Positions 28,599 through 42,562 of a stretch of DNA of 64,000 nt are shown piece after piece; the stretch's first letter is position 1; each line of letters begins with the position of its first letter. The notes under the pieces are model-generated. The model was not told the DNA's origin. It saw only the letters and a list, made by a program, of their open reading frames with translations, and did not search any database. Made by a program: the position numbers and the translations under genes. The DNA is from Escherichia coli (GTDB taxonomy: Bacteria; Pseudomonadota; Gammaproteobacteria; Enterobacterales; Enterobacteriaceae), in assembly GCF_030013595.1 (NCBI RefSeq), contig NZ_CP122768.1. The stretch is one strand, 5' to 3'.

Positions 28599-29341
28599 AT
28601 GATACAGAGTCGAAAAATCAAAGAGTTAAAAATTTTTCTTGGAATAAATGTCTTAAAATCGTACACGAAAAATCAATGAATTACATAACATTAAAGAAGA
28701 ATATTCCAAGCCTTCTTGAGGCTACCACCTGTTTTCAGGTGTCATTCAGACGTGATTTGCCCCAGATTGGGAAAGCACGCTTTTTTCTCAGCTATCGCCC
28801 TCTTATTTTGTCGTTACATTTCTTTTTGCACTCTAATGATTAATTTACAATAATAATATCGGTAATTATTGAGTAATAATAAATTGATTATTGCAAATGT
28901 AATTTAATTCCATCTTCGCGTTATATTCCAATCTTTAATCTCCGCATGGAACAAGTTGCATGCGTGACTATATTAAGACAACTTATAACCACCGAAACAT
29001 TTGCTTTGCAAGCAAAAACAGTGACCATTGACTCTAAGAAAATTCCGATCTATTGTTAGGGTCATCAAAGTTACTTAACAGTATTCCGAAATGAAAATAC
29101 AAAGCAAGCTAATTGTCTTATTAAACATTATTATTGCATTTATATTATTTGAGCTTTTAGCTCAAAAATTTGGTTTGAGTACATTATTTTAAAGCAAGAT
29201 AAACAATATCGGGCACTCTAGTTTTTATAATTAACAATTAAACGTCCATAAAATGTTATTTACTTTTCTTCGCTATTGTCATATCTTAATATAGTGGCTT
29301 ACGCCACTCTACTTTCATCACATTTTGTACGTTTATGTACT

Positions 29342-29372
29342 CGCCATGAAGCTCTTTCATGGCGATTTTTTA
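29342..29372 (+). terminator. intrinsic terminator in the AT-rich b-region gap
   Basis: 9-bp stem CGCCATGAA/TTCATGGCG with 5-nt loop, then TTTTTT. Confidence 0.45.
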
Positions 29373-29457
29373 TTCTTAATCCAAGAACATACTCCCTACC
29401 TATAGCAAAATCACTTTTTGAACAAAAGAATAACGTATTTAGGTAATCATTACGAAT

Positions 29458-30039
29458 TTACCCTATAGGTGCTACTGGCCATTCAATATCCGGTGCAGTT
29501 GTTGTATTAACACGGTTCAGCAACACCCGATACTTTTTCCAGGCTTCCAGCAACGAGTTTTCTTCCTCCGTTGCGATTTCCAGATCTACAGCATCCTGAA
29601 GTGGCGCAATATGCTCACTGGCTACCTGCATCAGGTTGTTTTTTGTTTCTTCCGCCTCCCGGATCCGGAACAGTTTTTCTGCTTCCGTATCCTTCACCCA
29701 GGCTGTGCCGTTCCACTTCTGAAACTCCCCTTCCGGGGATAACCAGGTGACATTTTCCGGTAATGGGCCAAGTTCAGAAATAAATAACGCGTCGCCGGAA
29801 GCCACGTCATAAACCGTTTTACCCCGATGATCTTCAACGAGATGCCACGATGACTCATCACTGTTGAAAACAGCCACGAAGCCAGCCGGAATATCTGGCG
29901 GTGCAATATCGGTACTGTTTGCTGGCAGACCTGTATGAGGCGGAATATATGCATCACCTTCACCAATAAATTCATTAGTTCCGGCCAGCAGATTATAAAT
30001 TTTTATGGTCCGTGGTTGTTCACTCATTCTGAATGCCAT
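29458..30039 (-). CDS. tfa: tail fibre assembly protein
   Basis: 193 aa, lambda Tfa-like, immediately downstream of stf. Confidence 0.85.
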
Positions 30040-33000
30040 TATGCAAGCCTCACAATATAGTTAAATGCGATGTTTTTGACGGTGTTTTCCGCGTTACCAG
30101 CAGCGTTAACGGTGATGGTGTGTCCATGTGAACCAATCGCAACCGAGTGCGTATGCGCACCAATACCTACAGTATGTGCGTGTGCACCTGCGCTTGCAGC
30201 AGTACCCGATACAGAGTGCGTATGAGCGCCTGCAGAAGAAGTGTTAACACTGTATTTAGAATAATCAGGTGATCCACTTCCCGGAGCACCTTTGGTGCCA
30301 CCTGAAACAAATGTCATCGAATGGGTATGTGCACCGGCTGAAGCAGCCGTACCGCTAACACTATGGGTATGCGCACCAGTGTTATTCGTGGATTTAGTGC
30401 CGTAATCAAACGACGATGTGGTTTTCGTCCCCAAATCCGTACTGGATACGCTGGCGCTGTGGGTGTGTGATTTAATGCCGTCCTGTTCCTGAGACAATAC
30501 GGCTCGATCACTGGCGGGCTTGCCCTTAATCGTCCAGCCACGCATATCAGGGATCACGCCTGACGGATAAGCGGCTGCAAGTTTCGGGTAAGCAGATTTG
30601 TCAAAAGTCTGCCCCTGCATCAGGGCATAACCAGACGGAACGGTATCTGATGGCCACGGGATTGGTGCGCCGACTGGGTAGCTTTCTGGTGGAAGATTTT
30701 TCGAGGTATAAACTTCTGCCCAGTCTTCCTCAAAACCATAACCGTCTCTTGAAGAACGGTAGAACAGACCACCATTTCTGTAATGCGCCTTCATCTGCAA
30801 GGTCCGGCAACTTCCGACTCCGGTATAGAAGTTAACCAGAATATAGCTGTAGCCAGAGCGGGTGACATTATAAGCGCCTGATTCGGCATTCCAGGGAACG
30901 CCACCATCCGCATCGGCATATGTATCCGTTGCCCTTCTGGCAAAAGCAGCCACATGCGCGGCGGTTAAAGTAATATCTTTGGAACCATCAAACTCAACAC
31001 CAGAAACCCGTCTTGGCGTTTGCAGCTTTGTTGCTGTTAATGCATTACCGTTCAGACTTGCGGACAGTTTGGTTCCAATAACCAGTTCGCCGGTTGCGTT
31101 ATCAATAGCAAACGGTCTTAATGTATTCCAGCTACCATAAACATCACCTTGATTGGTAAGCAGCAGGTAAGTTTTAGCGCCATCATTACGCCATAATGCA
31201 CCATACTCCCCACCTATCATTCGAATCTGATTACCACCACGCGCTACAATTTCGTCTGTGGCAAAAAGTTTTTTGCACGACAAGTTATCGTTAACGATTA
31301 ACGAATGAGACTCATAAAAACCACGCCCACTCTTAAAATCAAGGATAACGTCCGCCGCGATACATTCAGTCGCCGGATTTGTTGCCCCAAACTTATAGGT
31401 CGTATCATTAACAACGAGATCAGCACCAGGTGCGGATATTGACAGGCCATCTTCGATAAACGCAAAAACAGGGAAAGCAGCGCCATCAACATAGAACACA
31501 GAGCGCAAATCATCGCCCTTATTACTCATCATTATTGAGTGGATGGCTCGTTCATTGTTTTGATATTGCCAGAACATTCCATAAGCATAACGCCCCCTGT
31601 CAGTACAGCCACCAGGCATAACAAATCCGTTAAACTCGCAGTTATTCATCGGATCGCCTGCGGTTCGCGTTGCCGTGGTGATAATGACCCTTGATGCCAG
31701 TTCGCTTACTGAGCCAGCAGAACGCATAACAGCAACAGGGTAATATTTTCCAGATGTTGCACCTGCAGGAGCGTTAACCCGCACATAACGCATACCACGC
31801 TTATCAGCAAAGTCTGTTTTACTGACCGCGTTAATGTTGTTCAGGAAGCGTCCCTTATCGGGTATATCAGCGCCGTTCTGGTCTTTCTGCAGACGTTTCT
31901 CTGCATTGTCATAGGCTGATTTTACTGCCTTTGGCGTTGCCGCCAGCGTTTCAGACGTACTGTTGGTCGCACTGCTGAGCTGTACTACCCCCTTTTTCGT
32001 CGTGCTCGCATCCTCAAGCGCCACGGCGGACGCAATATCCTCTGCCCGTTTTGCCGCTGTCTCGGCGCGCGTTGCCGCGGATTCCGCCGTACTTTTGCTC
32101 TGTGCTGCCGCCGTCGCACTGCCAGCTGCCTCTGTCGCCTTCGTGGATGCTGTCGTGGCGCTGCCCTTCGCTGCGGACGCTTGTCTGGTCGCCTCATCTT
32201 TTGAAGCAGACGCCGATGATGCCGATGACGCCGCCGAACTGGCGGACGATGCCGCTGCCGTTTTTGAGGATTCTGCACGGGTTTCCGACGCTTTCGCGTT
32301 CGTTTCGGATGTCTTCGCTGCGGAAGCTGACCTCGCTGCTGCCGTGGCCTGCTCAGTGGCTTCGCCAGCCTTCGTTGTGGCTGTTGAAGCGGATGATGCG
32401 GCGCTTTCTGCCGATTTTCCGGCGGCGGTGGCACTGGCTGAGGCCTGCCCGGCACTTGTTGACGCGGCACTGGCAGACGACGCAGCCGCTGTTTTTGAGC
32501 CTGCCGCAGCTGAGGCGCTCTGTCCCGCTGCCGTCTCAGAAGACCTGGCGTTCGTCTCGGACGTTTTTGCCGCCTTCGCGGAATTTCCTGCCGCCGTTGC
32601 CGAGGAAGCTGCGCTACTGGCGCTCAAGGATGCGTTCGTTTCTGATGATTTCGCTGCCTCTTTTGAGGCCGCCGCATCCCGGGCTGAGGTGGCAGCTTCT
32701 GACGCCTTTGTGGTCGCTGCGGATGCAGAAGTGGCTGCAGATTTTTGTGACGCTGCCGCATTCGTTTCTGACGTTTTCGCCGCAGCGGCACTGGTGGCCG
32801 CCGCGCTTTTTGAGGACTCTGCAGCGGCAGCACTTTTTGATGCTTCAGTGGCCTTTGTTGATGCCGTTCCTGCGCTGGAAGACGCTGACTGAGCCGACGA
32901 AGCGGCCTGTCCGGCTGACGTGCTGGCTGCGCGTGCTGAGCCTGCAGCATCAGTCGCATGGGTTGCCGCCTCACGGGCAGATGTGCCGGCATCGCCGGCT

Positions 33001-33395
33001 GACTTCTTCGCGGCTGCCGTGTTCTGTGCCACCACGGACGCGTTACGCGCCACCTCTTCCACCATCAGCTCAAAACGGCGCAGTGCCTCCGGACGGGCAT
33101 CATCCTCCGTCATGGCACCGAGAAAATCATTCAGCGTACCGGGTCGGGAATCTTCATACACTGTGATAGTCCCGGCATGTGACGGCGGGAATCCTTCCAC
33201 CAACAGAATAACGCTGTACTGACCGTACTCAACGTCCATACTGTAACGCCCGGCTTCATCCGGATTTTCTGAGGCCAGCGTGTTCACCACCACCGTGGTG
33301 CTGTTACGTTTTGCTTTCAGCTGGATTGTGCAGTTCTGTACCGGTTTTCCTGTGCCGTCTTTCAGTACACCTGAAATCTTTACTGCCATATTCAC
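30039..33395 (-). CDS. stf: side tail fibre protein with long Ala/Ser/Thr-rich repeat region
   Basis: 1118 aa; lambda Stf-like N-terminus, ~350 aa low-complexity tract, C-terminal repeated HTHS motifs. Confidence 0.85.
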
Positions 33396-33453
33396 CCCAC
33401 AAAAAAGCCCGCCTGAACCGGCGGGCTGTCATAACACTGTGTTACCTGGCTAA

Positions 33454-34053
33454 TCAGAATTTATAACCGACACCCACGATGAACCCGTCAGTGCGCCAGT
33501 CACCGCTGCCGGAGCCTTCATAAGCGACGTCAACGGCCACGGATTCGGTCGGGTTAAACTGCACGCCAGCTCCCCACGCCAGAGACGTGTTGCTGTGGCG
33601 ACCGTCATCACTTCCGGTCAGCACATCGTGCGTTTTCCCCTTGTTGTCAGTTACGCGGATATAATCTCCGGAGAAAGTCGACACACGGCTGTAAGCCATA
33701 CCCGCCATCGCATACGCGCTGAACCATTCATTCACGCGCACAGACGGCCCCGCCATCACGCTGAACCAGCGGTTACGCACGGAATCTTCATGCCAGCGGG
33801 TATCGCTGTAATGCGTTTTTTGCTCATCTTCAGCGTTGGTATAACTGAATGACGTAATCAGCCCCAGCGTGTCCGTAAACTCATAACGGTATTTCACGTT
33901 AATCCCGTTCAGATTATCGCTGCCGGGAGCGTTCGTACGGGCATGAAGATACCCTGCGCTCAGTGTGGCCTGCTGCTCAGACGCCCATGCAGGCGCACCG
34001 GATACGGCCAGACAGATGGCTGCGGACAAAATGGCTGCACAAACTTTACGCAT
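33454..34053 (-). CDS. lom: Lom/Ail-family outer membrane protein
   Basis: 199 aa; signal peptide; C-terminus YEGSGSGDWRTDGFIVGVGYKF as in lambda Lom. Confidence 0.85.
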   Translation of the reverse strand: MRKVCAAILSAAICLAVSGAPAWASEQQATLSAGYLHARTNAPGSDNLNGINVKYRYEFTDTLGLITSFSYTNAEDEQKTHYSDTRWHEDSVRNRWFSVMAGPSVRVNEWFSAYAMAGMAYSRVSTFSGDYIRVTDNKGKTHDVLTGSDDGRHSNTSLAWGAGVQFNPTESVAVDVAYEGSGSGDWRTDGFIVGVGYKF

Positions 34054-34072
34054 AATTACCTCTCGCTTTTCT

Positions 34073-34101
34073 GCAATAAAAAAGGCGCCATTTCTGGCGC
34101 C
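34073..34101 (-). terminator. intrinsic terminator downstream of J
   Basis: minus-strand hairpin GGCGCCAGAAATGGCGCC followed by TTTTTTATT. Confidence 0.5.
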
Positions 34102-34120
34102 CGTATATGGGTTATAAAAT

Positions 34121-37100
34121 TCAGCTGATACTGATGCCTGCGGTGGCTTTCTTCATCACCACAACCAGCAAATCGCTGATACTTGCTGTGGGATACCAGT
34201 TATTTACCAGCCATGCTGACACCGAAAACTCCAGTGTCATGTGACCGTGACCGGCAGGCATATCAATAACACCACTGTAAATCAGCGTATTATCCAGCGC
34301 GGTACGGTTATAAATTTCAGCACCGTTTTTCCGTACTATCAGACGGCATGAGGAGTAAATATCAGTATGCTCTTTCTCATGTTTAGCGCCGCTGAATGCC
34401 ACCGCCGGAATAACAATCTGCCGGTCAAACGGCTGATCGTCATAAACCCTGACGGTGATGGTCCCTGATGGCCACCGTTCCGGTGCACGGGAGTCCCGGG
34501 GGAAAGCTTTGCCCACTGTTTTAACGAGATCGCCTTCAATCTGGTTCGCGGACAGTTTTCCCAGAACCCGACAGTTCTCGTTAATCGTGACGTTGTTGAG
34601 CGTCCCGGAGTTCGCATTCACGTTACCGCTGATATCGGCATTTTTCGCCGTCAGCCGCCCGTCCGGTGTCAGGGAAAATGCCGGTGGATTTCCGCCGCTG
34701 GTAATGGTGGGAGCCGTCAGGCGTTTCAGGAACACGTCGTTCATGAATATCTGATCGCCCTGACCAACAAACATCGGCTTTGTGTTGCCATTCGCAGGAT
34801 TAATCATCGCAATCCGGTCAGCAGCCAGAAGCACCTGACTCTGCATACCTGCTGGCGTATTCTCAATACCGGCTCCGATACCCGCAATATAAAGGCGTCC
34901 GTCCTTCATCTGCTGCAGTTTCACGGCCCACATGCTGTTCAGGTTATTATTTGTATCAACCTGAACTTTCTGTATCTGCTGGATTGCCGCGCTCTGATTT
35001 TCCAGTTTCTTATTGACGGTCTGTGTGATTTCATTGCTGACATCCGTAATGGACGTCCTGATTTCAGCCAGGTCAGGCGCAAGCTGATCGTTATCAATCT
35101 GCGTCCACAGCTCCTGAGCCAGATGGGTTTTCCCTATCTCGCCTTTGAAAAAATCCAGATAGCCGGATGCGTCATCACTCGGCTGACCGACAGCCTCCAC
35201 GAATGCCGATTTGCCAACAGTGTTCACACTGCGAACGTAAAAATAATAATCATGGCCCGGCTTAATATTGATACTGGCAGCTATCCAGTACAGCGCCGTA
35301 CCAAGATAGCGCGCTGTGGTTTCAACCTGCCTGATATCCGCAATCCGCTTTTCCGAGAACCAGAACTCAAACTGTACCGTCGGATCATAAACGGCAAGAT
35401 GCGGCGTGGCGGTTATCTGAAAATAGCCCGGCGTCAGCTCAATCCGCGACGGTGCTGCCGGTGCGGCAATCCGGAACGATACCGATGCCGGATCGCCCTG
35501 CTGTCCCCACGCATTTACCGCCCGGACTGTCAGCCTGTAGTTCCCCAGCGCCAGCTGCCTGAAGCGGTATGTGGTTTCCGTCGTCCGGGCCGTGCTGACC
35601 AGCCGCTCACTGCCGTCATCGGCGGCCACGGTCAGGCGAAGCATAAAGCTCACACCCTTCACCACCTTCGGCGTGTCCCAGCGCGCCAGCACCTGATACT
35701 CCCCACTGTCTGCGGTGACTTCTGCGGTCAGGTGCTGCACCGCTGGCGGCGTGACACCATTCACCGTGCCGCTCTGGTCGCCGTCAAAGTGCGCCCCGTT
35801 ATCCACGATGGCTTCTTTCTCCGGTACATGCTGCACGGCAGTGATGGCATACGTGCCGTCATCGTTCTCACGGATACTCACACAGCGGAACAGGCGCTGG
35901 CGCAACGTCGGCAGCTTCAGCCCCCACACGCTGTATTCTGCAACGCCGTCAGGAACACGGCTCACTTTCACCTTCACACCGTCGGTGACGGACTGAACCT
36001 CCACGCTGACCGGATTGCCACTTCCGTCAACCAGGCTTATCAGCGTGGTACCGGAGGATGGCAGCGTGATTTCACGGTCGAGCGTCAGCGTCCGGGTCTG
36101 GCTGTTCACCGCCAGCACGCGCCCGCCGGTGCTGATACCGGCATAGTCATCATCGCAGATTTCAATGACATCGCCCGGCACATGGCGAAGCCCTTCTGCG
36201 CCCACGCTGAAATCCACGGTCTGCGTTTCCAGCAGTTCCGTTTTAATCAGCCACAGCCCGGCGCGGTGTGCCTGCCCCCGGCTGGTACAGCCAAAGGCAT
36301 CCATCTTCGTAACATTACGACCGTAACGGGCAATGGCCTGCGTATCTTCAACAAGCTCTGTCGCCGTCTCCCAGCCGTTATCCGGGTCAATCCAGTTCAC
36401 CTCAACGGCATTATGGCGGTCCTTCAGGGCGCTGAAGCTGTAGCGGAACGGCGCGCCATCATCCGGCATCACCACATTACTGCGGTTATAGGTCCACACC
36501 TTATCCGACGGTCGGTCCTGCACGAACGTCAGCGTCTGCCCGTTCCATACCGGCATACAGCGCATCGCCGAGCAGAAATCGCTGAGCACATCCCACGCCT
36601 TACGTTGTGTGGTCAGCCAGGCATTACAGGTGATGCGCGGCTCCGTGCCGCCAAAACCGTCCGGCACCGACTGGTCGCAGTACTGGCCGATGACATACAG
36701 CGCCCATTTATCCACATCTGCCGCACCAAGACGTTTCCCCATGCCGTAGCGCGGATGGGTCAGCATATCCCACAGACACCAGGCCATGTTGTTGCTGTAT
36801 GCTGGCTTAAACGTTCCATCCCAGATACCGCTGTATTGCCGCGTCTGCGGGTTATAGTTCGACGGCACCTGCAGAATGCGCCCGCGCAGATGATAATTAC
36901 GGCTCACCTGCTGGCTGCCGAACTGCTCCGAGTCCACCTGCACGCCGACCAGTGCCGTGTTCGGGTAGCACTGTTTCACATCTATAATTTCGGTGTATGA
37001 CGACCAGAGCGTTTTGTTCTGCAGCTGGTCTGTGGTGCTGTCCGGCGTCATCCTGCGCATCCGGATACTGAACGGGCGCGGCGGCAGGTTATCCACCACC

Positions 37101-37600
37101 ACCGAGGCCAGATACTGCGAGGTGGTTTTGCCCTTAATGGTGATGTCTTTTTCCGTCACCCAGCCACCGTTACGTTGTATCTGAACCAGCAGGCGGACTT
37201 CCGATGGATTCCTGTCACCCTTTGAGGTGGTTTCCACCAGTGCCTGCACACCGAAGGTAAAGCGCAGTCGGTCGATGTTTGCCGACGTGATGGCGCGGGT
37301 GATCGGCGTGTCGTATTTCACTTCCGTACCCAGCACCGTCTCGGAGCCGGAGGATTCAAATCCCTCCGGCGGAGTCTGCTCCTGCTCACCAGCCCGGAAC
37401 ACCACCGTGACACCGGCGATGTTGGTATTCCCCTCACTGTCCAGCACCGGCGTACTGTTCAGCAGCACGCTTTTTAATCCATCCACCGGACCTTCAATCG
37501 GCCCTTCACTGATGGCATCAATCACACTCAGCAACTGCGTGGATTTCAGGTTGTCCTTCGCTTCGCGCGGGGTATGCCCCTTACTGCTGCCTTTACCCAT
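34121..37600 (-). CDS. J: tail tip host-specificity protein J
   Basis: 1159 aa; N-terminal ~900 aa near-identical to remembered lambda J; C-terminal part divergent. Confidence 0.9.
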
Positions 37601-37671
37601 TCGTCACGCTCCATAAACGACAAAACCGCCCGCAGGCGGTTTCACATAAAACATTTTTCATCAGCGACCAA

Positions 37672-38331
37672 TCACCACAACCTGACCACCATCACCTTCA
37701 TCTGCTGTGCTGATCTCCTGAGATACCACCCGCGACCCCACACGCATTTCACCGTACAGAACGGGCAGGACATTGCCCTGGGCAACCATATTATCCAGTG
37801 AAGAAAAATAGGTGTTCTGTTTGCCGTTATCCGTTGTCTGTGTGCGGGGGTTTTGGGTTTAGGGGCCAGCATCTGCGCCACACCACCGAGCACCATACTG
37901 GCACCGAGAGAAAACAGGATACCGGTCATACCACCGGCCCCAATGGCTGCCCCCCATGCTGCAAGGGTGGCTCCGGCAGTAAAGAATGATCCGGCAATGG
38001 CGGCAGCCCCCAGAACAATCTGGAATACGCCCCCTGACTTGGCCCCGGCGACTCTGGGAACAATATGAATCACAGCGCCGTCAGGCAGAGTCTCATGTAA
38101 CTGCGCCGTTAACCCGGACGTGCTGACGTCCCGCCCGGCAATCCGTACCTGATACCAGCCGTCGCTCAGTTTCTGACGAAACGCCGGGAGCTGTGTGGCC
38201 AGTGCGCGGATGGCTTCAGCCCCCGTTTTCACACGAAGGTCGATGCGGCGGCCAAATCGTTGCAAATCCCCGTAAAGGCAGATGCGTGCCATTCCCGGTG
38301 ACGCCAGAGGGAGTGTGTGCGTCGCTGCCAT
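37672..38331 (-). CDS. I: tail tip assembly protein I, C-terminus frameshifted relative to lambda gpI (possible pseudogene)
   Basis: first ~160 aa match lambda gpI; after a C-run near 37845-37850 the ORF leaves the frame that encodes the conserved ...SLDNMVAQGNVLPVLYGEMRVGSRVVSQEISTADEGDGGQVVVIGR (stop at 37661). Confidence 0.7.
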   Translation of the reverse strand: MAATHTLPLASPGMARICLYGDLQRFGRRIDLRVKTGAEAIRALATQLPAFRQKLSDGWYQVRIAGRDVSTSGLTAQLHETLPDGAVIHIVPRVAGAKSGGVFQIVLGAAAIAGSFFTAGATLAAWGAAIGAGGMTGILFSLGASMVLGGVAQMLAPKPKTPAHRQRITANRTPIFLHWIIWLPRAMSCPFCTVKCVWGRGWYLRRSAQQMKVMVVRLW

Positions 38332-38972
38332 TTGTCGGTGTACCTCTCTCGTTTGCTCAGTTGTTCAGGAATATGGTGCAGCAGCTCGCTGTCACCACAG
38401 TAAATGGCGGCATGATTCGGCACCGATGAACCAAAACAGCACAGCAGCACATCGCCCGGCTGCGCCGCTGACAACGGCACCTGATACAGCCCTGTGGCCT
38501 CCAGATTATCCAGATAGAGATTCTGACCGTTACGCCACCAGTCATCCTCGCGATGAAAATCCGGCATCTCAATCCCCGCCAGATGGTAAGCATCCCGGAA
38601 CAGCGTGTAACAGTCCGTCACCCCGTGCTCAAAGCGCCGCCCGGTGAGATGCGGCACACAGCGGAACTTGTGAATCGCCCCCCGGCAGACCAGCCACCAC
38701 GGCAAATCACTCTGCACCTGCAGCCGCCGGTCAGCCTCACTCAGCCAGGGCAGACCACCGGGATGACTGTGGACCAGTGCCACAATCTCACCCTGCATCT
38801 CTGCCTGCAGCCAGTCCTCCGGAGCCATCCGGAAATAATCCTCCGGCTCACCGGAAATATTCACGCAGGGAAAATATCTTTCCCCCTCCGGCGCTCTCAC
38901 CACGAAGCCGCACGACTCCGCTGGCGCACATCGCCGGGCGTGCGCCAGAATCGCTGATTCTGTCTCTGTCAT
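38229..38972 (-). CDS. K: tail tip assembly protein K (MPN + NlpC/P60 domains)
   Basis: lambda gpK-like from MTETESAIL; true start may be internal (lambda K is annotated shorter); 3' end overlaps I. Confidence 0.85.
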   Translation of the reverse strand: MTETESAILAHARRCAPAESCGFVVRAPEGERYFPCVNISGEPEDYFRMAPEDWLQAEMQGEIVALVHSHPGGLPWLSEADRRLQVQSDLPWWLVCRGAIHKFRCVPHLTGRRFEHGVTDCYTLFRDAYHLAGIEMPDFHREDDWWRNGQNLYLDNLEATGLYQVPLSAAQPGDVLLCCFGSSVPNHAAIYCGDSELLHHIPEQLSKRERYTDKWQRRTHSLWRHREWHASAFTGICNDLAAASTFV

Positions 38973-38976
38973 GGGA

Positions 38977-39675
38977 TTACTGCGAAAGTTTGTTAATGGA
39001 AAGGAAGCCGCCAAAGTTGCCGACGTTATTGCGAAACTTACAGCCGCTCAGGCATTTGCTGCATTTATCCTTCGTGATATCGGACGTCGGCTGGTCATAT
39101 TCATCCGCGACTGCCGGACCGTGATAACCGCACTCATCACCGCGATAGGTCCAGGTGCAGGTGTTGGCCAGCATGATACGTCCCGGAAAAACAGCGCCAT
39201 CCGTTTCCGTCGGCGTGGACAGTACAAAGGAGGCACTCACCGCGCTCAGTTCGCTGCACTGCTCGATGCGCCAGCGGCTGATCACCTCCTGCTCCGGATC
39301 GGCGTCACTGTTTCCGTTGACGAAGTTCACCGCATCCAGAAAACGGGCGTAAACCTTACGCCGGACCACCGTTCCGCCGACCAGACTCTGCAGATCTTCC
39401 GCCATCCCGGTGACCATACCGTACAGGTTAGAAACCGTCAGCGTGGGGCGCGTACTGGTGCCTTTGCCATTCAGTTCAAAACCACTCCCCTGAATGGGAT
39501 ACGGCTGATACTGTCGCCCCTGCCAGGTGACCGGCACACCTTTTTCGTTCTGCTCATTACAGAAAAAATAACGTTCTCCACCGACCTCTGTCAGGTCGAT
39601 TTCCCAGAGCACCACGCTGGCCGACTGCTCCGCACGGGTGCATTCATTCAGTGTTTCCTGCCGGATATCCTGCAT
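38977..39675 (-). CDS. L: tail tip protein L
   Basis: 232 aa, lambda gpL-like, Cys-rich C-terminus. Confidence 0.9.
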   Translation of the reverse strand: MQDIRQETLNECTRAEQSASVVLWEIDLTEVGGERYFFCNEQNEKGVPVTWQGRQYQPYPIQGSGFELNGKGTSTRPTLTVSNLYGMVTGMAEDLQSLVGGTVVRRKVYARFLDAVNFVNGNSDADPEQEVISRWRIEQCSELSAVSASFVLSTPTETDGAVFPGRIMLANTCTWTYRGDECGYHGPAVADEYDQPTSDITKDKCSKCLSGCKFRNNVGNFGGFLSINKLSQ

Positions 39676-40004
39676 CAGTTCACCACCTGTTCAAACTCTG
39701 CGCTGAACTCAACACGCAGCATACTGACCCGCGACGACCATTTTGCGCAGGTCACCTTTATCTGCCGCCACTCATAAGGCGGCGTCCACAGAAAGGCTTT
39801 CCAGCCCCCGTGCTCTTCCAGAAACGACTCCAGTACCGTGGCCTCCTCACGGGGGACAGAAAGCGTCACGCTGTACGTTTTCAGGTTGGCATTCAGCCCG
39901 GCAGGCGCTCGCTGGGAATAGCCATCACCAAAGCGCACCTTTCTTACAGAAGGGGCCGAAGCCACATCCATACCGGGTTTCACTTTCCAGCGGAAGGTTT
40001 TCAT
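39675..40004 (-). CDS. M: tail tip protein M
   Basis: 109 aa, lambda gpM-like. Confidence 0.9.
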   Translation of the reverse strand: MKTFRWKVKPGMDVASAPSVRKVRFGDGYSQRAPAGLNANLKTYSVTLSVPREEATVLESFLEEHGGWKAFLWTPPYEWRQIKVTCAKWSSRVSMLRVEFSAEFEQVVN

Positions 40005-42562
40005 CGTCCACCTCCGGAGAACAGTCCACCATCACGCATCTGTGTCTGAATTTCATCACGGGCACCCTTGCGGGCCATGTCATACACCGCCTTCAGAGCA
40101 GCCGGACCTATCTGCCCGTTCGTGCCGTCGTTGTTAATCACCACATGGTTATTCTGCTCAAACGTCCCGGACGCCTGCGACCGGCTGTCAGCCAGACTGC
40201 CCGGTGTACCGACATAACCACCGGTGGCATAGCCGCGCATCAGCCGGTAGAGATTCCCCACGCCAATCCGGCTGGTTGCCTCCTTTGTGAAGACAAATTC
40301 ACCACGGTGAACAATCCCCGCTGGCTCATATTTGCCGCCGGTTCCCGTAAATCCTCCGGTTGCAAAATGGAATTTCGCCGCAGCGGCCTGAATGGCTGTA
40401 CCGCCTGACGCGGATGCGCCGCCACCAACAGCCCCGCCAATAGCGCTGCCGATACTCCCGACAATCCCCACCATTGCCTGCTTAAGCAGAATTTCTGTCA
40501 TCATGGACAGCACGGAACGGGTGAAGCTGCGCCAGTTCTGCTCACTGCCGGTCAGCATCGCCGCCATATTCTGTGCAATACCATCAAAGGTCTGCGTGGC
40601 TGCACTTTTTACCTGCGACATACTGTCCGTGGCGCTCTCTTCCCACTCACTCCAGCCGGACTTCAGGCCTGCCATCCAGCTCCCGCGAAGCTGGTCTTCA
40701 GCCGCCCAGGTCTTTTTCTGCTCTGACATGACGTTATTCAGCGCCAGCGGATTATCGCCATACTGTTCCTTCAGGCGCTGTTCCGTGGCTTCCCGTTCTG
40801 CCTGCCGGTCAGTCAGCCCCCGGCTTTTCGCATCAATGGCGGCCCGTTTTGCCCGTTGCTGCTGTGCGAATTTATCCGCCTGCTGCGCCAGCGCGTTCAG
40901 GCGCTCCTGATACGTAACCTTGTCGCCAAGTGCAGCCAGCTGGAGTTTGTACTCCAGCGTCTCATCTTTATGCGCCAGCAGGGATTTCTCCTGTGCAGAC
41001 AGCTGGCGACGTTGCGCCGCCTCCTCCAGTACCGCGAACTGACTCTCCGCCTTCCACAAATCCCGGCGCTGCTGGCTGATTTTCTCATTTGCTCCGGCAT
41101 GCTTCTCCAGCGTCCGGAGTTCAGCCTGAAGCGTCAGCAGGGCAGCATGAGCACTGTCTTCCTGACGATCGCCCGCAGACACCTTCACGCCGGACTGTTT
41201 CGGCTTTTTCAGCGTCGCTTCATAGTCCTTTTTCGCCGCCGCCATCAGCGTGTTGTAATCTGCCTGCAGAATTTTCCCGTCCTTCAGTGCCTTGTTCAGT
41301 TCTTCCTGACGGGCGGTATATTTCTCCAGCGGCGTCTGCAGCCGTTCGTAAGCTTTCTGCGCCTCTTCGGTATATTTCAGCCGTGACGCTTCAGTATCGC
41401 TCTGCTGCTGCGCATTTTTGTCCTGTTGACTCTGCTGTTCAGCCTTCTTTCTCGCGGCTTCAAGCGCAAGACGGGCCTTTTCACGATCATCCCAGTAACG
41501 CGCCCGCGCTTCATCGTTAACAAAATAATCATCCTTGCGCAGACTCCAGATGTCGTCCGCTTTCTTAAACGCAGCCTCTGCCTTAATCAGCATCTCCTGA
41601 GCGGTATCAGGACGACCAATATCCAGCACCGCATCCCACATGGATTTGAATGCCCGCGCTGTCCTGTCTGCCCAGGTCTCCAGCGTACCCATGTTCTCTT
41701 TCAGGCGGCGGGTCTGGTCATCAAACCCTTTCGTCGCGGCCTCGTTCGCCGCCTGCAATGCCCCGGCTTCATCGCCGGAACGCTGCAACTGAGCAACATA
41801 CGCAATCTGCTCCGCCGTCACGTTATGGAACTGGCGTGCCATCGCTGTCAGCCCTGACGTCGGGTCTGTGGTCAGCTTCCCGAAGGCTTCAGCGACCTTG
41901 TCCACCTCCACGCCGGATGCAGAGGAGAAACGCGCCACACTCTGGCTGATGGATGCAATCTGAGCCTCACCGCTTACTCCCGCCTTAACCAGTGCGCTGA
42001 GTGACTCGCTGGTCTGGTTAAACGTCAGCCCTGCCGCCTGCCCGGCTCTGGACAGGACCAGCATACGATCTGCCGTCAGACCCGACTGATTGCCGGAAAG
42101 GACCAGCGTTTTGTTGAAATCGGACAGGGTTGAGTTGCCCTGATACCAGGCATACGCCAGCGCACCGGTCGCCACCGCCAGCGAGGTGGCCCCGACCATC
42201 GGCAGGGTGATCGCACCGGCAAGCCCCCTGAACATGGGGATCATCCCGCCGAAGGAGTCCTTCACCTGACCACCCTGTTGCAGCAGGATCAGCCACGGAC
42301 TTTGCCCGCCTGCAAGCTGCGTGGCCACGTCGGTGAACTGCGCAGGCAGCATACGCATGGCAGCTTTATACTGCCCGACGGAAATCCCCGCTTTCTGTGC
42401 AGCCAGCGCCTGTCGGCTCAGCGACTGTTCAACGACTGCCGCTGTTTTTTTCGCATCACTTTCCGTACCGGAAAAATGACGCCTGACTCTGGCCATCTGC
42501 TCGTCAAATCTGGCCGCATCCAGACTTAAATCAACGACCAGATCGCCTACCGGTTCAGCCAT
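40001..42562 (-). CDS. H: tail tape measure protein H
   Basis: 853 aa, same length as lambda gpH; coiled-coil rich. Confidence 0.9.
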   Translation of the reverse strand: MAEPVGDLVVDLSLDAARFDEQMARVRRHFSGTESDAKKTAAVVEQSLSRQALAAQKAGISVGQYKAAMRMLPAQFTDVATQLAGGQSPWLILLQQGGQVKDSFGGMIPMFRGLAGAITLPMVGATSLAVATGALAYAWYQGNSTLSDFNKTLVLSGNQSGLTADRMLVLSRAGQAAGLTFNQTSESLSALVKAGVSGEAQIASISQSVARFSSASGVEVDKVAEAFGKLTTDPTSGLTAMARQFHNVTAEQIAYVAQLQRSGDEAGALQAANEAATKGFDDQTRRLKENMGTLETWADRTARAFKSMWDAVLDIGRPDTAQEMLIKAEAAFKKADDIWSLRKDDYFVNDEARARYWDDREKARLALEAARKKAEQQSQQDKNAQQQSDTEASRLKYTEEAQKAYERLQTPLEKYTARQEELNKALKDGKILQADYNTLMAAAKKDYEATLKKPKQSGVKVSAGDRQEDSAHAALLTLQAELRTLEKHAGANEKISQQRRDLWKAESQFAVLEEAAQRRQLSAQEKSLLAHKDETLEYKLQLAALGDKVTYQERLNALAQQADKFAQQQRAKRAAIDAKSRGLTDRQAEREATEQRLKEQYGDNPLALNNVMSEQKKTWAAEDQLRGSWMAGLKSGWSEWEESATDSMSQVKSAATQTFDGIAQNMAAMLTGSEQNWRSFTRSVLSMMTEILLKQAMVGIVGSIGSAIGGAVGGGASASGGTAIQAAAAKFHFATGGFTGTGGKYEPAGIVHRGEFVFTKEATSRIGVGNLYRLMRGYATGGYVGTPGSLADSRSQASGTFEQNNHVVINNDGTNGQIGPAALKAVYDMARKGARDEIQTQMRDGGLFSGGGR

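Follow-up and report, generated by a model that had tools for sequence, protein, structure and literature searches.

This locus raises the question of which outer-membrane receptor is recognized by the tip attachment protein J of an Escherichia coli prophage. The window analyzed here is a stretch of 64,000 nt from contig NZ_CP122768.1 (RefSeq assembly GCF_030013595.1), and an intact J gene, encoding the central tail fibre or tip attachment protein, lies on its minus strand at 34121..37600, as identified from the ORF list, its translation and Pfam domains. An earlier note, made from the sequence of the window, had reported that the C-terminal part of this protein departs from lambda J and had proposed a different outer-membrane receptor from it. 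The analysis gave high confidence that the J tip is an OmpC-type receptor-binding domain carried on a lambda-type J, with the distal third of the protein derived from a Sakai-type lineage. Judged from sequence, the receptor of this J is most likely OmpC rather than LamB.

The J ORF is 3480 nt in length and translates to 1159 aa plus a stop codon with no internal stops, compared to 1132 aa for lambda J; the two lengths given in the earlier note were confirmed by the ORF translation and the length of lambda J. Six gpJ Pfam domains were found above their gathering cut-offs and in the expected order (FNIII-A_GpJ, Phage-tail_3 (hub), Ig_J, Ig_J_second, Phage_Tail_Tip and Ig_GpJ_C), and Pfam analysis of the flanking ORFs gave the gene order H-(M)-L-K-I-J-lom-stf-tfa, which is the standard lambdoid tail module. 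Both the domain series and the gene order are those of a lambda-type tip attachment protein J. The LamB-binding J of lambda (P03749; PDB 8XCJ/8XCK) shares gene position, domain architecture and fold with the window protein and is 94–100% identical to it over aa 1–805. Overall BLASTP identity between the two is 83%, distributed very unevenly along the protein: in binned comparisons, aa 1–815 were 94–100% identical to lambda, aa 816–900 28% identical with 28 gap positions, aa 901–965 69%, aa 966–1010 91%, and aa 1011–1159 34–48%. The claim that the first ~900 residues track lambda therefore stands to aa ~805–815 and fails for aa 816–900, the bin of low identity, which holds a 28-aa insertion. 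A fall in identity as large as that at the C-terminal end, over 480 nt within a single gene, is not chance.

The receptor-binding domain, delimited by BLASTP, Pfam and structural modeling, occupies aa 1004–1159 (34124..34591, minus strand) and is of the VT1-Sakai or "1A2" type, a putative OmpC binder. Over the last 157 aa it matches that of PhiR5_1 at 100% identity; it is 99.4% identical to that of phage VT1-Sakai, and likewise near-identical to those of the PPompW phages; taken together with 1A2, the domains of VT1-Sakai (Sp15), the PPompW phages (O157:H7), PhiR5_1 and 1A2 are 99.4–100% identical to the one in the window. Identity falls to 63–65% against phage 21 and 1H12, to 43.6% against lambda (aligned end to end, BLASTP E=1e-36), and to ~41% against 434 and WGPS6; at the DNA level the domain is 54–59% identical to lambda, versus 91–99% upstream. 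The J proteins of 434 and phi330/WGPS6 belong to the same family and also use OmpC, as a separate sequence class. Alignment to the J proteins of lambda, HK97, phi80 and N15 bore out that the C-terminus is not lambda-type, and BLASTP found no significant similarity between the domain and HK97, N15 or phi80, although the hub of these three proteins is homologous (26–50% identity over aa 1–500). The statement that the C-terminus does not match lambda was correct as to strong divergence and too strong as to kinship, as the domain still aligns with that of lambda over its entire length and falls in the same Pfam family. Similarly, the interval first proposed for the divergence, 34121–34900 (aa 901–1159), contains the divergent domain at 34124–34591 but also takes in aa 901–1003, which are 69–91% identical to lambda, and a second diverged block (~34751–35188) starts outside it.

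By sequence the domain belongs to PF12421 (Ig_GpJ_C, "C-terminal receptor binding domain"), which was matched over aa 1029–1159 at 128.5 bits (cut-off 26.2, E=2.4e-37). An AlphaFold2 monomer model of the last 169 aa had a mean pLDDT of 84.8 and was mainly beta; Foldseek searches of solved structures with this model returned 9wcb, 9wca, 8xck and 8xcj (TM 0.76–0.83, E 1e-17 to 3e-19), the top match being 9wcb, "A8 gpJ with OmpC G17 from EDL933". The domain is thus predicted to have the same Ig-like fold as the lambda tip. A PDB sequence search returned 9wca, "A8 gpJ", at E=8e-110 and lambda 8xcj at E=3e-88, so that A8 gpJ (PDB 9WCA/9WCB, with OmpC G17 of EDL933) is the best match among solved tips by both sequence and structure. 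In an alignment of 25 tips, the scaffold motifs [31 protein letters not shown] and KK...GIS were conserved, and four segments were hypervariable (aa ~1036–1044, 1072–1083, 1097–1108 and 1129–1140); by analogy with lambda, these segments may correspond to its L1–L4 loops. The homologue set consisted mainly of gene fragments and was used for alignment, being unsuitable for a census. The idea that predicted loops hold all of the divergence from lambda was rejected, as identity was 39% in strands versus 47% in loops.

The assignment to OmpC is drawn from published work on engineered particles. Brödel et al. (Nature 2024) exchanged the part of lambda J that begins at aa 964 for the C-termini of natural prophage gpJ variants in order to obtain a receptor other than LamB, and characterized two of the chimeras, A8 and 1A2 (PMC11338833). 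The 1A2 tip was located in the supplement through the conserved start of J. The supplementary "GpJ 1A2" DNA is recoded and damaged by optical character recognition (OCR), and it was compared to the window by frameshift-tolerant alignment. With ten OCR frameshifts bridged, 188 of the 195 readable codons were identical to the C-terminus of the window J, and the remaining mismatches adjoin OCR errors except for S1157T, the third residue from the end, which is S in the window J and T in both 1A2 and VT1-Sakai. The window J is thus near-identical to the VT1-Sakai/1A2 type from the equivalent of lambda aa 964 to the C-terminus. Since the supplements of the Nature 2024 paper present the 1A2 tip as recoded DNA, neither peptide strings of the window nor 15-mers of its native DNA had a match there. 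A plain tblastn search of the OCR-damaged sequence returned fragmented hits with misleading identities of 46–68% and was set aside. The A8 tip is of the phage-21-like class (83% identity to phage 21 over readable codons).

In the same study, 1A2 particles delivered DNA into lamB- and ompC-deleted cells complemented with plasmid-borne ompC (PMC11338833). Delivery succeeded on 20 of 23 OmpC alleles, including that of EDL933 (G17, 98% at a multiplicity of infection (MOI) of 242), and the failures were G1, G2 and G40; G1 is the MG1655 (K-12) allele, at 2% (PMC11338833). The numbers for G1 are those of the MG1655 panel, and G17 is identified as the EDL933 allele by the title of PDB 9WCB. A8, by comparison, uses both the K-12 and the EDL933 OmpC, while 1A2 does not use that of K-12 (PMC11338833). 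In a follow-up preprint, 1A2 particles were used against O157 strains, and 121 of 121 O157 isolates shared one OmpC variant (bioRxiv 10.1101/2025.02.28.640725). Other J tip types documented on OmpC are those of 434, phi330 (closest relative WGPS6) and Gifsy-1, and those of lambda and phage 21 are documented on LamB; because tips of the same family are documented on either OmpC or LamB, receptor switching within the J scaffold is established. The different receptor proposed in the earlier note, which had not been named there, is accordingly supported by the 99.4–100% tip identity and the OmpC data for 1A2. The OmpC specificity comes from this literature; the window protein and its prophage, which are tied to it by the observed mosaic, family, fold and near-identity, would by analogy behave in the same way. 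A search of the literature gave nothing more specific on the receptor of VT1-Sakai-type long-tailed Stx phages, and the paper releasing the PhiR phages (SNIPE, PMC13190303) states no receptor for them. A 2026 receptor-prediction preprint covers Drexlerviridae-type GpJ and explicitly leaves the lambda tip out of its alignment.

The origin of the tip was traced by sliding-window nucleotide and protein identities of J against six reference J genes. The N-terminal body is lambda-type (aa 1–804, hub and FNIII/Ig domains; 35189..37600, minus strand, by nucleotide identity), with J nt 1 to ~2140 being 91–99% identical to lambda, 434 and phage 21 and 59–83% identical to VT1-Sakai and WGPS6. All reference types are alike over J nt ~2140–2410, and this similarity marks the segment as a likely crossover zone. 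From nt ~2410 to the 3' end, DNA sliding windows were near-identical to VT1-Sakai; counting the shared segment, DNA near-identity to VT1-Sakai runs from aa ~713 to the end, while the N-terminal ~710 aa of VT1-Sakai J differ (58–84% identity) from those of the window, which are lambda-type. VT1-Sakai J (AP000400, 5229–8701) is annotated as two coding sequences "truncated by a mutation", whereas the window J is intact.

Downstream of the crossover zone lies a shaft block of phage-21/VT1-Sakai type (aa 805–950, alpha-helical shaft and upper beta-prism; 34751..35188, minus strand, by nucleotide identity), which is 89–97% identical at the nucleotide level to phage 21, 1H12, VT1-Sakai and WGPS6 and 41–64% identical to lambda and 434. 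The names of the shaft and beta-prism domains were transferred from the lambda structure paper (PMC11101478). Relative to lambda, the helical shaft carries a 28-aa insertion at aa ~836–866 (35003..35095, minus strand), seen in BLASTP as gaps of 5+16+7 residues; the bin of aa 816–900 has 28 gap positions against both lambda and 434 and none against phage 21, 1H12 or WGPS6. The insertion is common to phage 21, 1H12, WGPS6 and VT1-Sakai. It explains the 1159 versus 1132 aa, since the receptor-binding domain is one residue shorter than that of lambda by BLASTP and takes no part in the length difference. As 28 residues equal four heptads, the insertion suggests a trimeric helical bundle ~4 nm longer. 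The window J differs from lambda in a shaft block 28% identical and containing this insertion, and by a receptor that is LamB in lambda and would be OmpC here.

Between shaft and tip is a conserved joint (aa 951–1003, J nt 2851–3000, lower beta-prism, [30 protein letters not shown]; 34592..34750, minus strand, by nucleotide identity), which is 85–95% identical at the nucleotide level to all six reference J genes; the Brödel chimeras, from Eligo, were joined within it, at lambda aa 964 (PMC11338833). Phage 21 and 1H12 share the VT1-Sakai-like type only to nt ~3070–3100, and protein and DNA sliding identities place a second junction in J at nt ~3010–3100. Their J proteins (1160 aa) are near-identical to the window J up to aa ~1033, including the longer shaft. 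The simplest history consistent with these identities would be one crossover between a lambda-like and a Sakai-like J within the shared segment at aa ~713–805, by which the distal third of J would have been acquired through recombination from the J lineage of O157 prophages such as VT1-Sakai (Sp15). A tentative extension, to which we give less than even credence, is that the engineered 1A2 chimera has a natural equivalent in this J (lambda-type hub, Sakai-type shaft and OmpC tip), with the crossover of J in the segment common to all types (aa ~713–805) and a second conserved joint at aa 951–1003; if recombination favours such joints, tips and shafts could be swapped as cassettes among E. coli prophages, and the longer shaft or S1157 might tune the use of OmpC alleles.

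Several points weigh against an OmpC assignment. The 1A2 experiments employed a chimera (lambda aa 1–964 plus a foreign tip) with the shorter lambda shaft, and the 1A2 sequence is readable only through OCR noise, with at least one real difference (S1157 versus T). For 1A2, the source data as extracted for Extended Data Fig. 2c show the same numbers in the EDL933 panel as for MG1655; this was treated as a source-data or extraction slip because it conflicts with the text of the paper, with variant G17 and with the source data of Extended Data Fig. 8. The ompC allele of the host lies outside the window. In hosts bearing O-antigen or capsule, the side fibre may be a stronger constraint on host range than J (bioRxiv 10.1101/2025.02.28.640725).

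Three other explanations were weighed against the same data. A different outer-membrane protein (OmpF, FhuA, FadL or similar) might serve as the receptor, or S1157 and the long shaft might shift specificity from that of 1A2. Use of OmpF or OmpC can be gained through single substitutions in the J of lambda or phage 21, and the window J has both the S1157T difference and a natural shaft 28 aa longer than that of the chimera. However, S and T are both natural at this site across alleles, in a ...GI[ST]IS tail, the specificity segment (aa 992–1159) is otherwise equal to 1A2, and N15 and phi80, which use FhuA, show no similarity to the domain and have downstream cor and accessory genes that are absent here; this explanation was considered improbable. 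That the tip still binds LamB despite its divergence, like those of lambda and wild-type phage 21, was considered very improbable. Phage 21 natively uses LamB with a receptor-binding domain 65% identical to that of the window, and the fold is the same as that of lambda; against this, the domain has only 43.6% identity to its lambda counterpart, and the near-identical 1A2 tip works in lamB-deleted cells given a suitable OmpC but delivers into wild-type, LamB-bearing MG1655 at only ~5%, versus ~98% for wild-type lambda (PMC11338833). Close identity to lambda J aa ~976–1132, as expected of a lambda-type LamB-binding domain, was not found (43.6%), and neither was a FhuA-type tip of the N15/phi80 kind, BLASTP being null and the gene downstream being lom instead of cor. 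N15 and phi80 have other downstream genes (gp22, gp23 and cor). Least probable of the three is that J belongs to a defective prophage and its specificity has no present biological consequence. Many J genes of O157 prophages are broken, as in the frameshift-split VT1-Sakai J, and insertion sequence (IS) fragments adjoin the prophage end, but J is full-length with all of its domains here, and H, L, K, I, lom, stf and tfa are all full-length ORFs with the expected domains.

Under the OmpC assignment, infection would begin with the docking of three copies of the Ig-like domain, at the far end of the central fibre, onto an OmpC trimer, the target being that of the 1A2 experiments. The tip would accept most natural OmpC alleles, that of O157/EDL933 included, and not the K-12 allele. 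In lambda, J is a homotrimer at the tail tip that opens upon receptor binding (PMC11101478). By analogy with lambda on LamB, the docked domains would spread at the base (PMC11101478), and the change would travel upward through the beta-prism and the helical shaft, opening the tail tube, if triggering follows lambda.

The tip allele is already known, having been characterized functionally and being in use in engineered delivery vectors. It is also the commonest J tip in E. coli, with the LamB-binding tip of lambda being the rare form: megablast of the 480-nt receptor-binding domain matched 3383 of 5426 complete E. coli genomes (~62%), ~2285 records matching at ≥95%, while the lambda domain was matched in 98 complete genomes, all at ≥99% identity, of which the three listed individually are laboratory strains. 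Phage records with the window tip type include VT1-Sakai, the PPompW phages, many Stx2a phages and the ECOR-derived PhiR phages. The allele would predict which strains can be entered by the prophage or by tail-derived particles, and it is of use in annotation and in predicting host range. Most natural OmpC alleles, that of O157 among them, would permit entry and those of K-12 laboratory strains probably would not, and entry would be independent of maltose or LamB expression.

Directly downstream of J is lom (33454..34053, minus strand; Ail/Lom outer-membrane protein, Pfam Ail_Lom E=1e-125), which is 83–98% identical at the nucleotide level to the lom of 434, VT1-Sakai and WGPS6 and 52–61% identical to that of lambda over most of the gene. 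Because this lom is of the 434/VT1-Sakai/WGPS6 type and not that of lambda, the exchanged segment probably extends past J into lom. A second host-range determinant, the side tail fibre gene stf (30039..33395, minus strand; 1118 aa), was identified by Pfam phage_tail_N, Gp34_trimer, Collar and Phage_fiber repeat matches. It is far longer than the stf of lambda, has an Ala/Ser-rich low-complexity stretch at aa ~140–480 and C-terminal His-rich GAHTHS repeats, and its DNA has a GC content of ~0.62 and a strong negative AT skew. It is followed by tfa (29458..30039, minus strand; tail fibre assembly chaperone, 193 aa, Pfam Caudo_TAP E=1e-42). Upstream of J, I, K, L (and M) and the tape-measure gene H (853 aa) occupy 37672..42562 on the minus strand (Pfam Lambda_tail_I, Prok-JAB+NLPC_P60, Phage_tail_L and TMP_2+Tape_meas_lam_C).

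The flanking chromosomal genes are uvrB-bioABFCD-ybhB, which places the prophage next to the bio side of the classical lambda attachment region. Its J end is the one closer to bio, as in the map of a lambda lysogen. Between ybhB and the tail-fibre end are IS3-family transposase fragments (26437–26658, minus strand; 26803–27168, plus strand) and an AraC-family regulator of 250 aa (27210–27962, minus strand). An AT-rich stretch (GC 0.30–0.37) lies near 29000–29400, and an ORF at 28536–28679, with the translation AERGGFEPP, resembles a tRNA 3' fragment, where ARAGORN calls no tRNA. Two adjacent tRNA genes, Thr(tgt) and Asn(gtt), are present at 56080–56235 (minus strand) among phage-like ORFs. When complete E. 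coli genomes were ranked by coverage x identity, the best matches were ~97.8% for 17000–27500 (chromosomal flank) and ~96% for 29000–38000 (tail region).

A further property of J concerns aa 930–961 (window 34718–34813), the counterpart of lambda J 902–933, a 32-residue peptide reported to activate the Gifsy-1 HepS abortive-infection anticodon nuclease (PMC13043305). In this region 25 of 32 residues are identical to lambda, and the key Phe is kept (lambda F924 = F952, in QIFMNDVF). On this similarity, the window J is predicted to trigger HepS.

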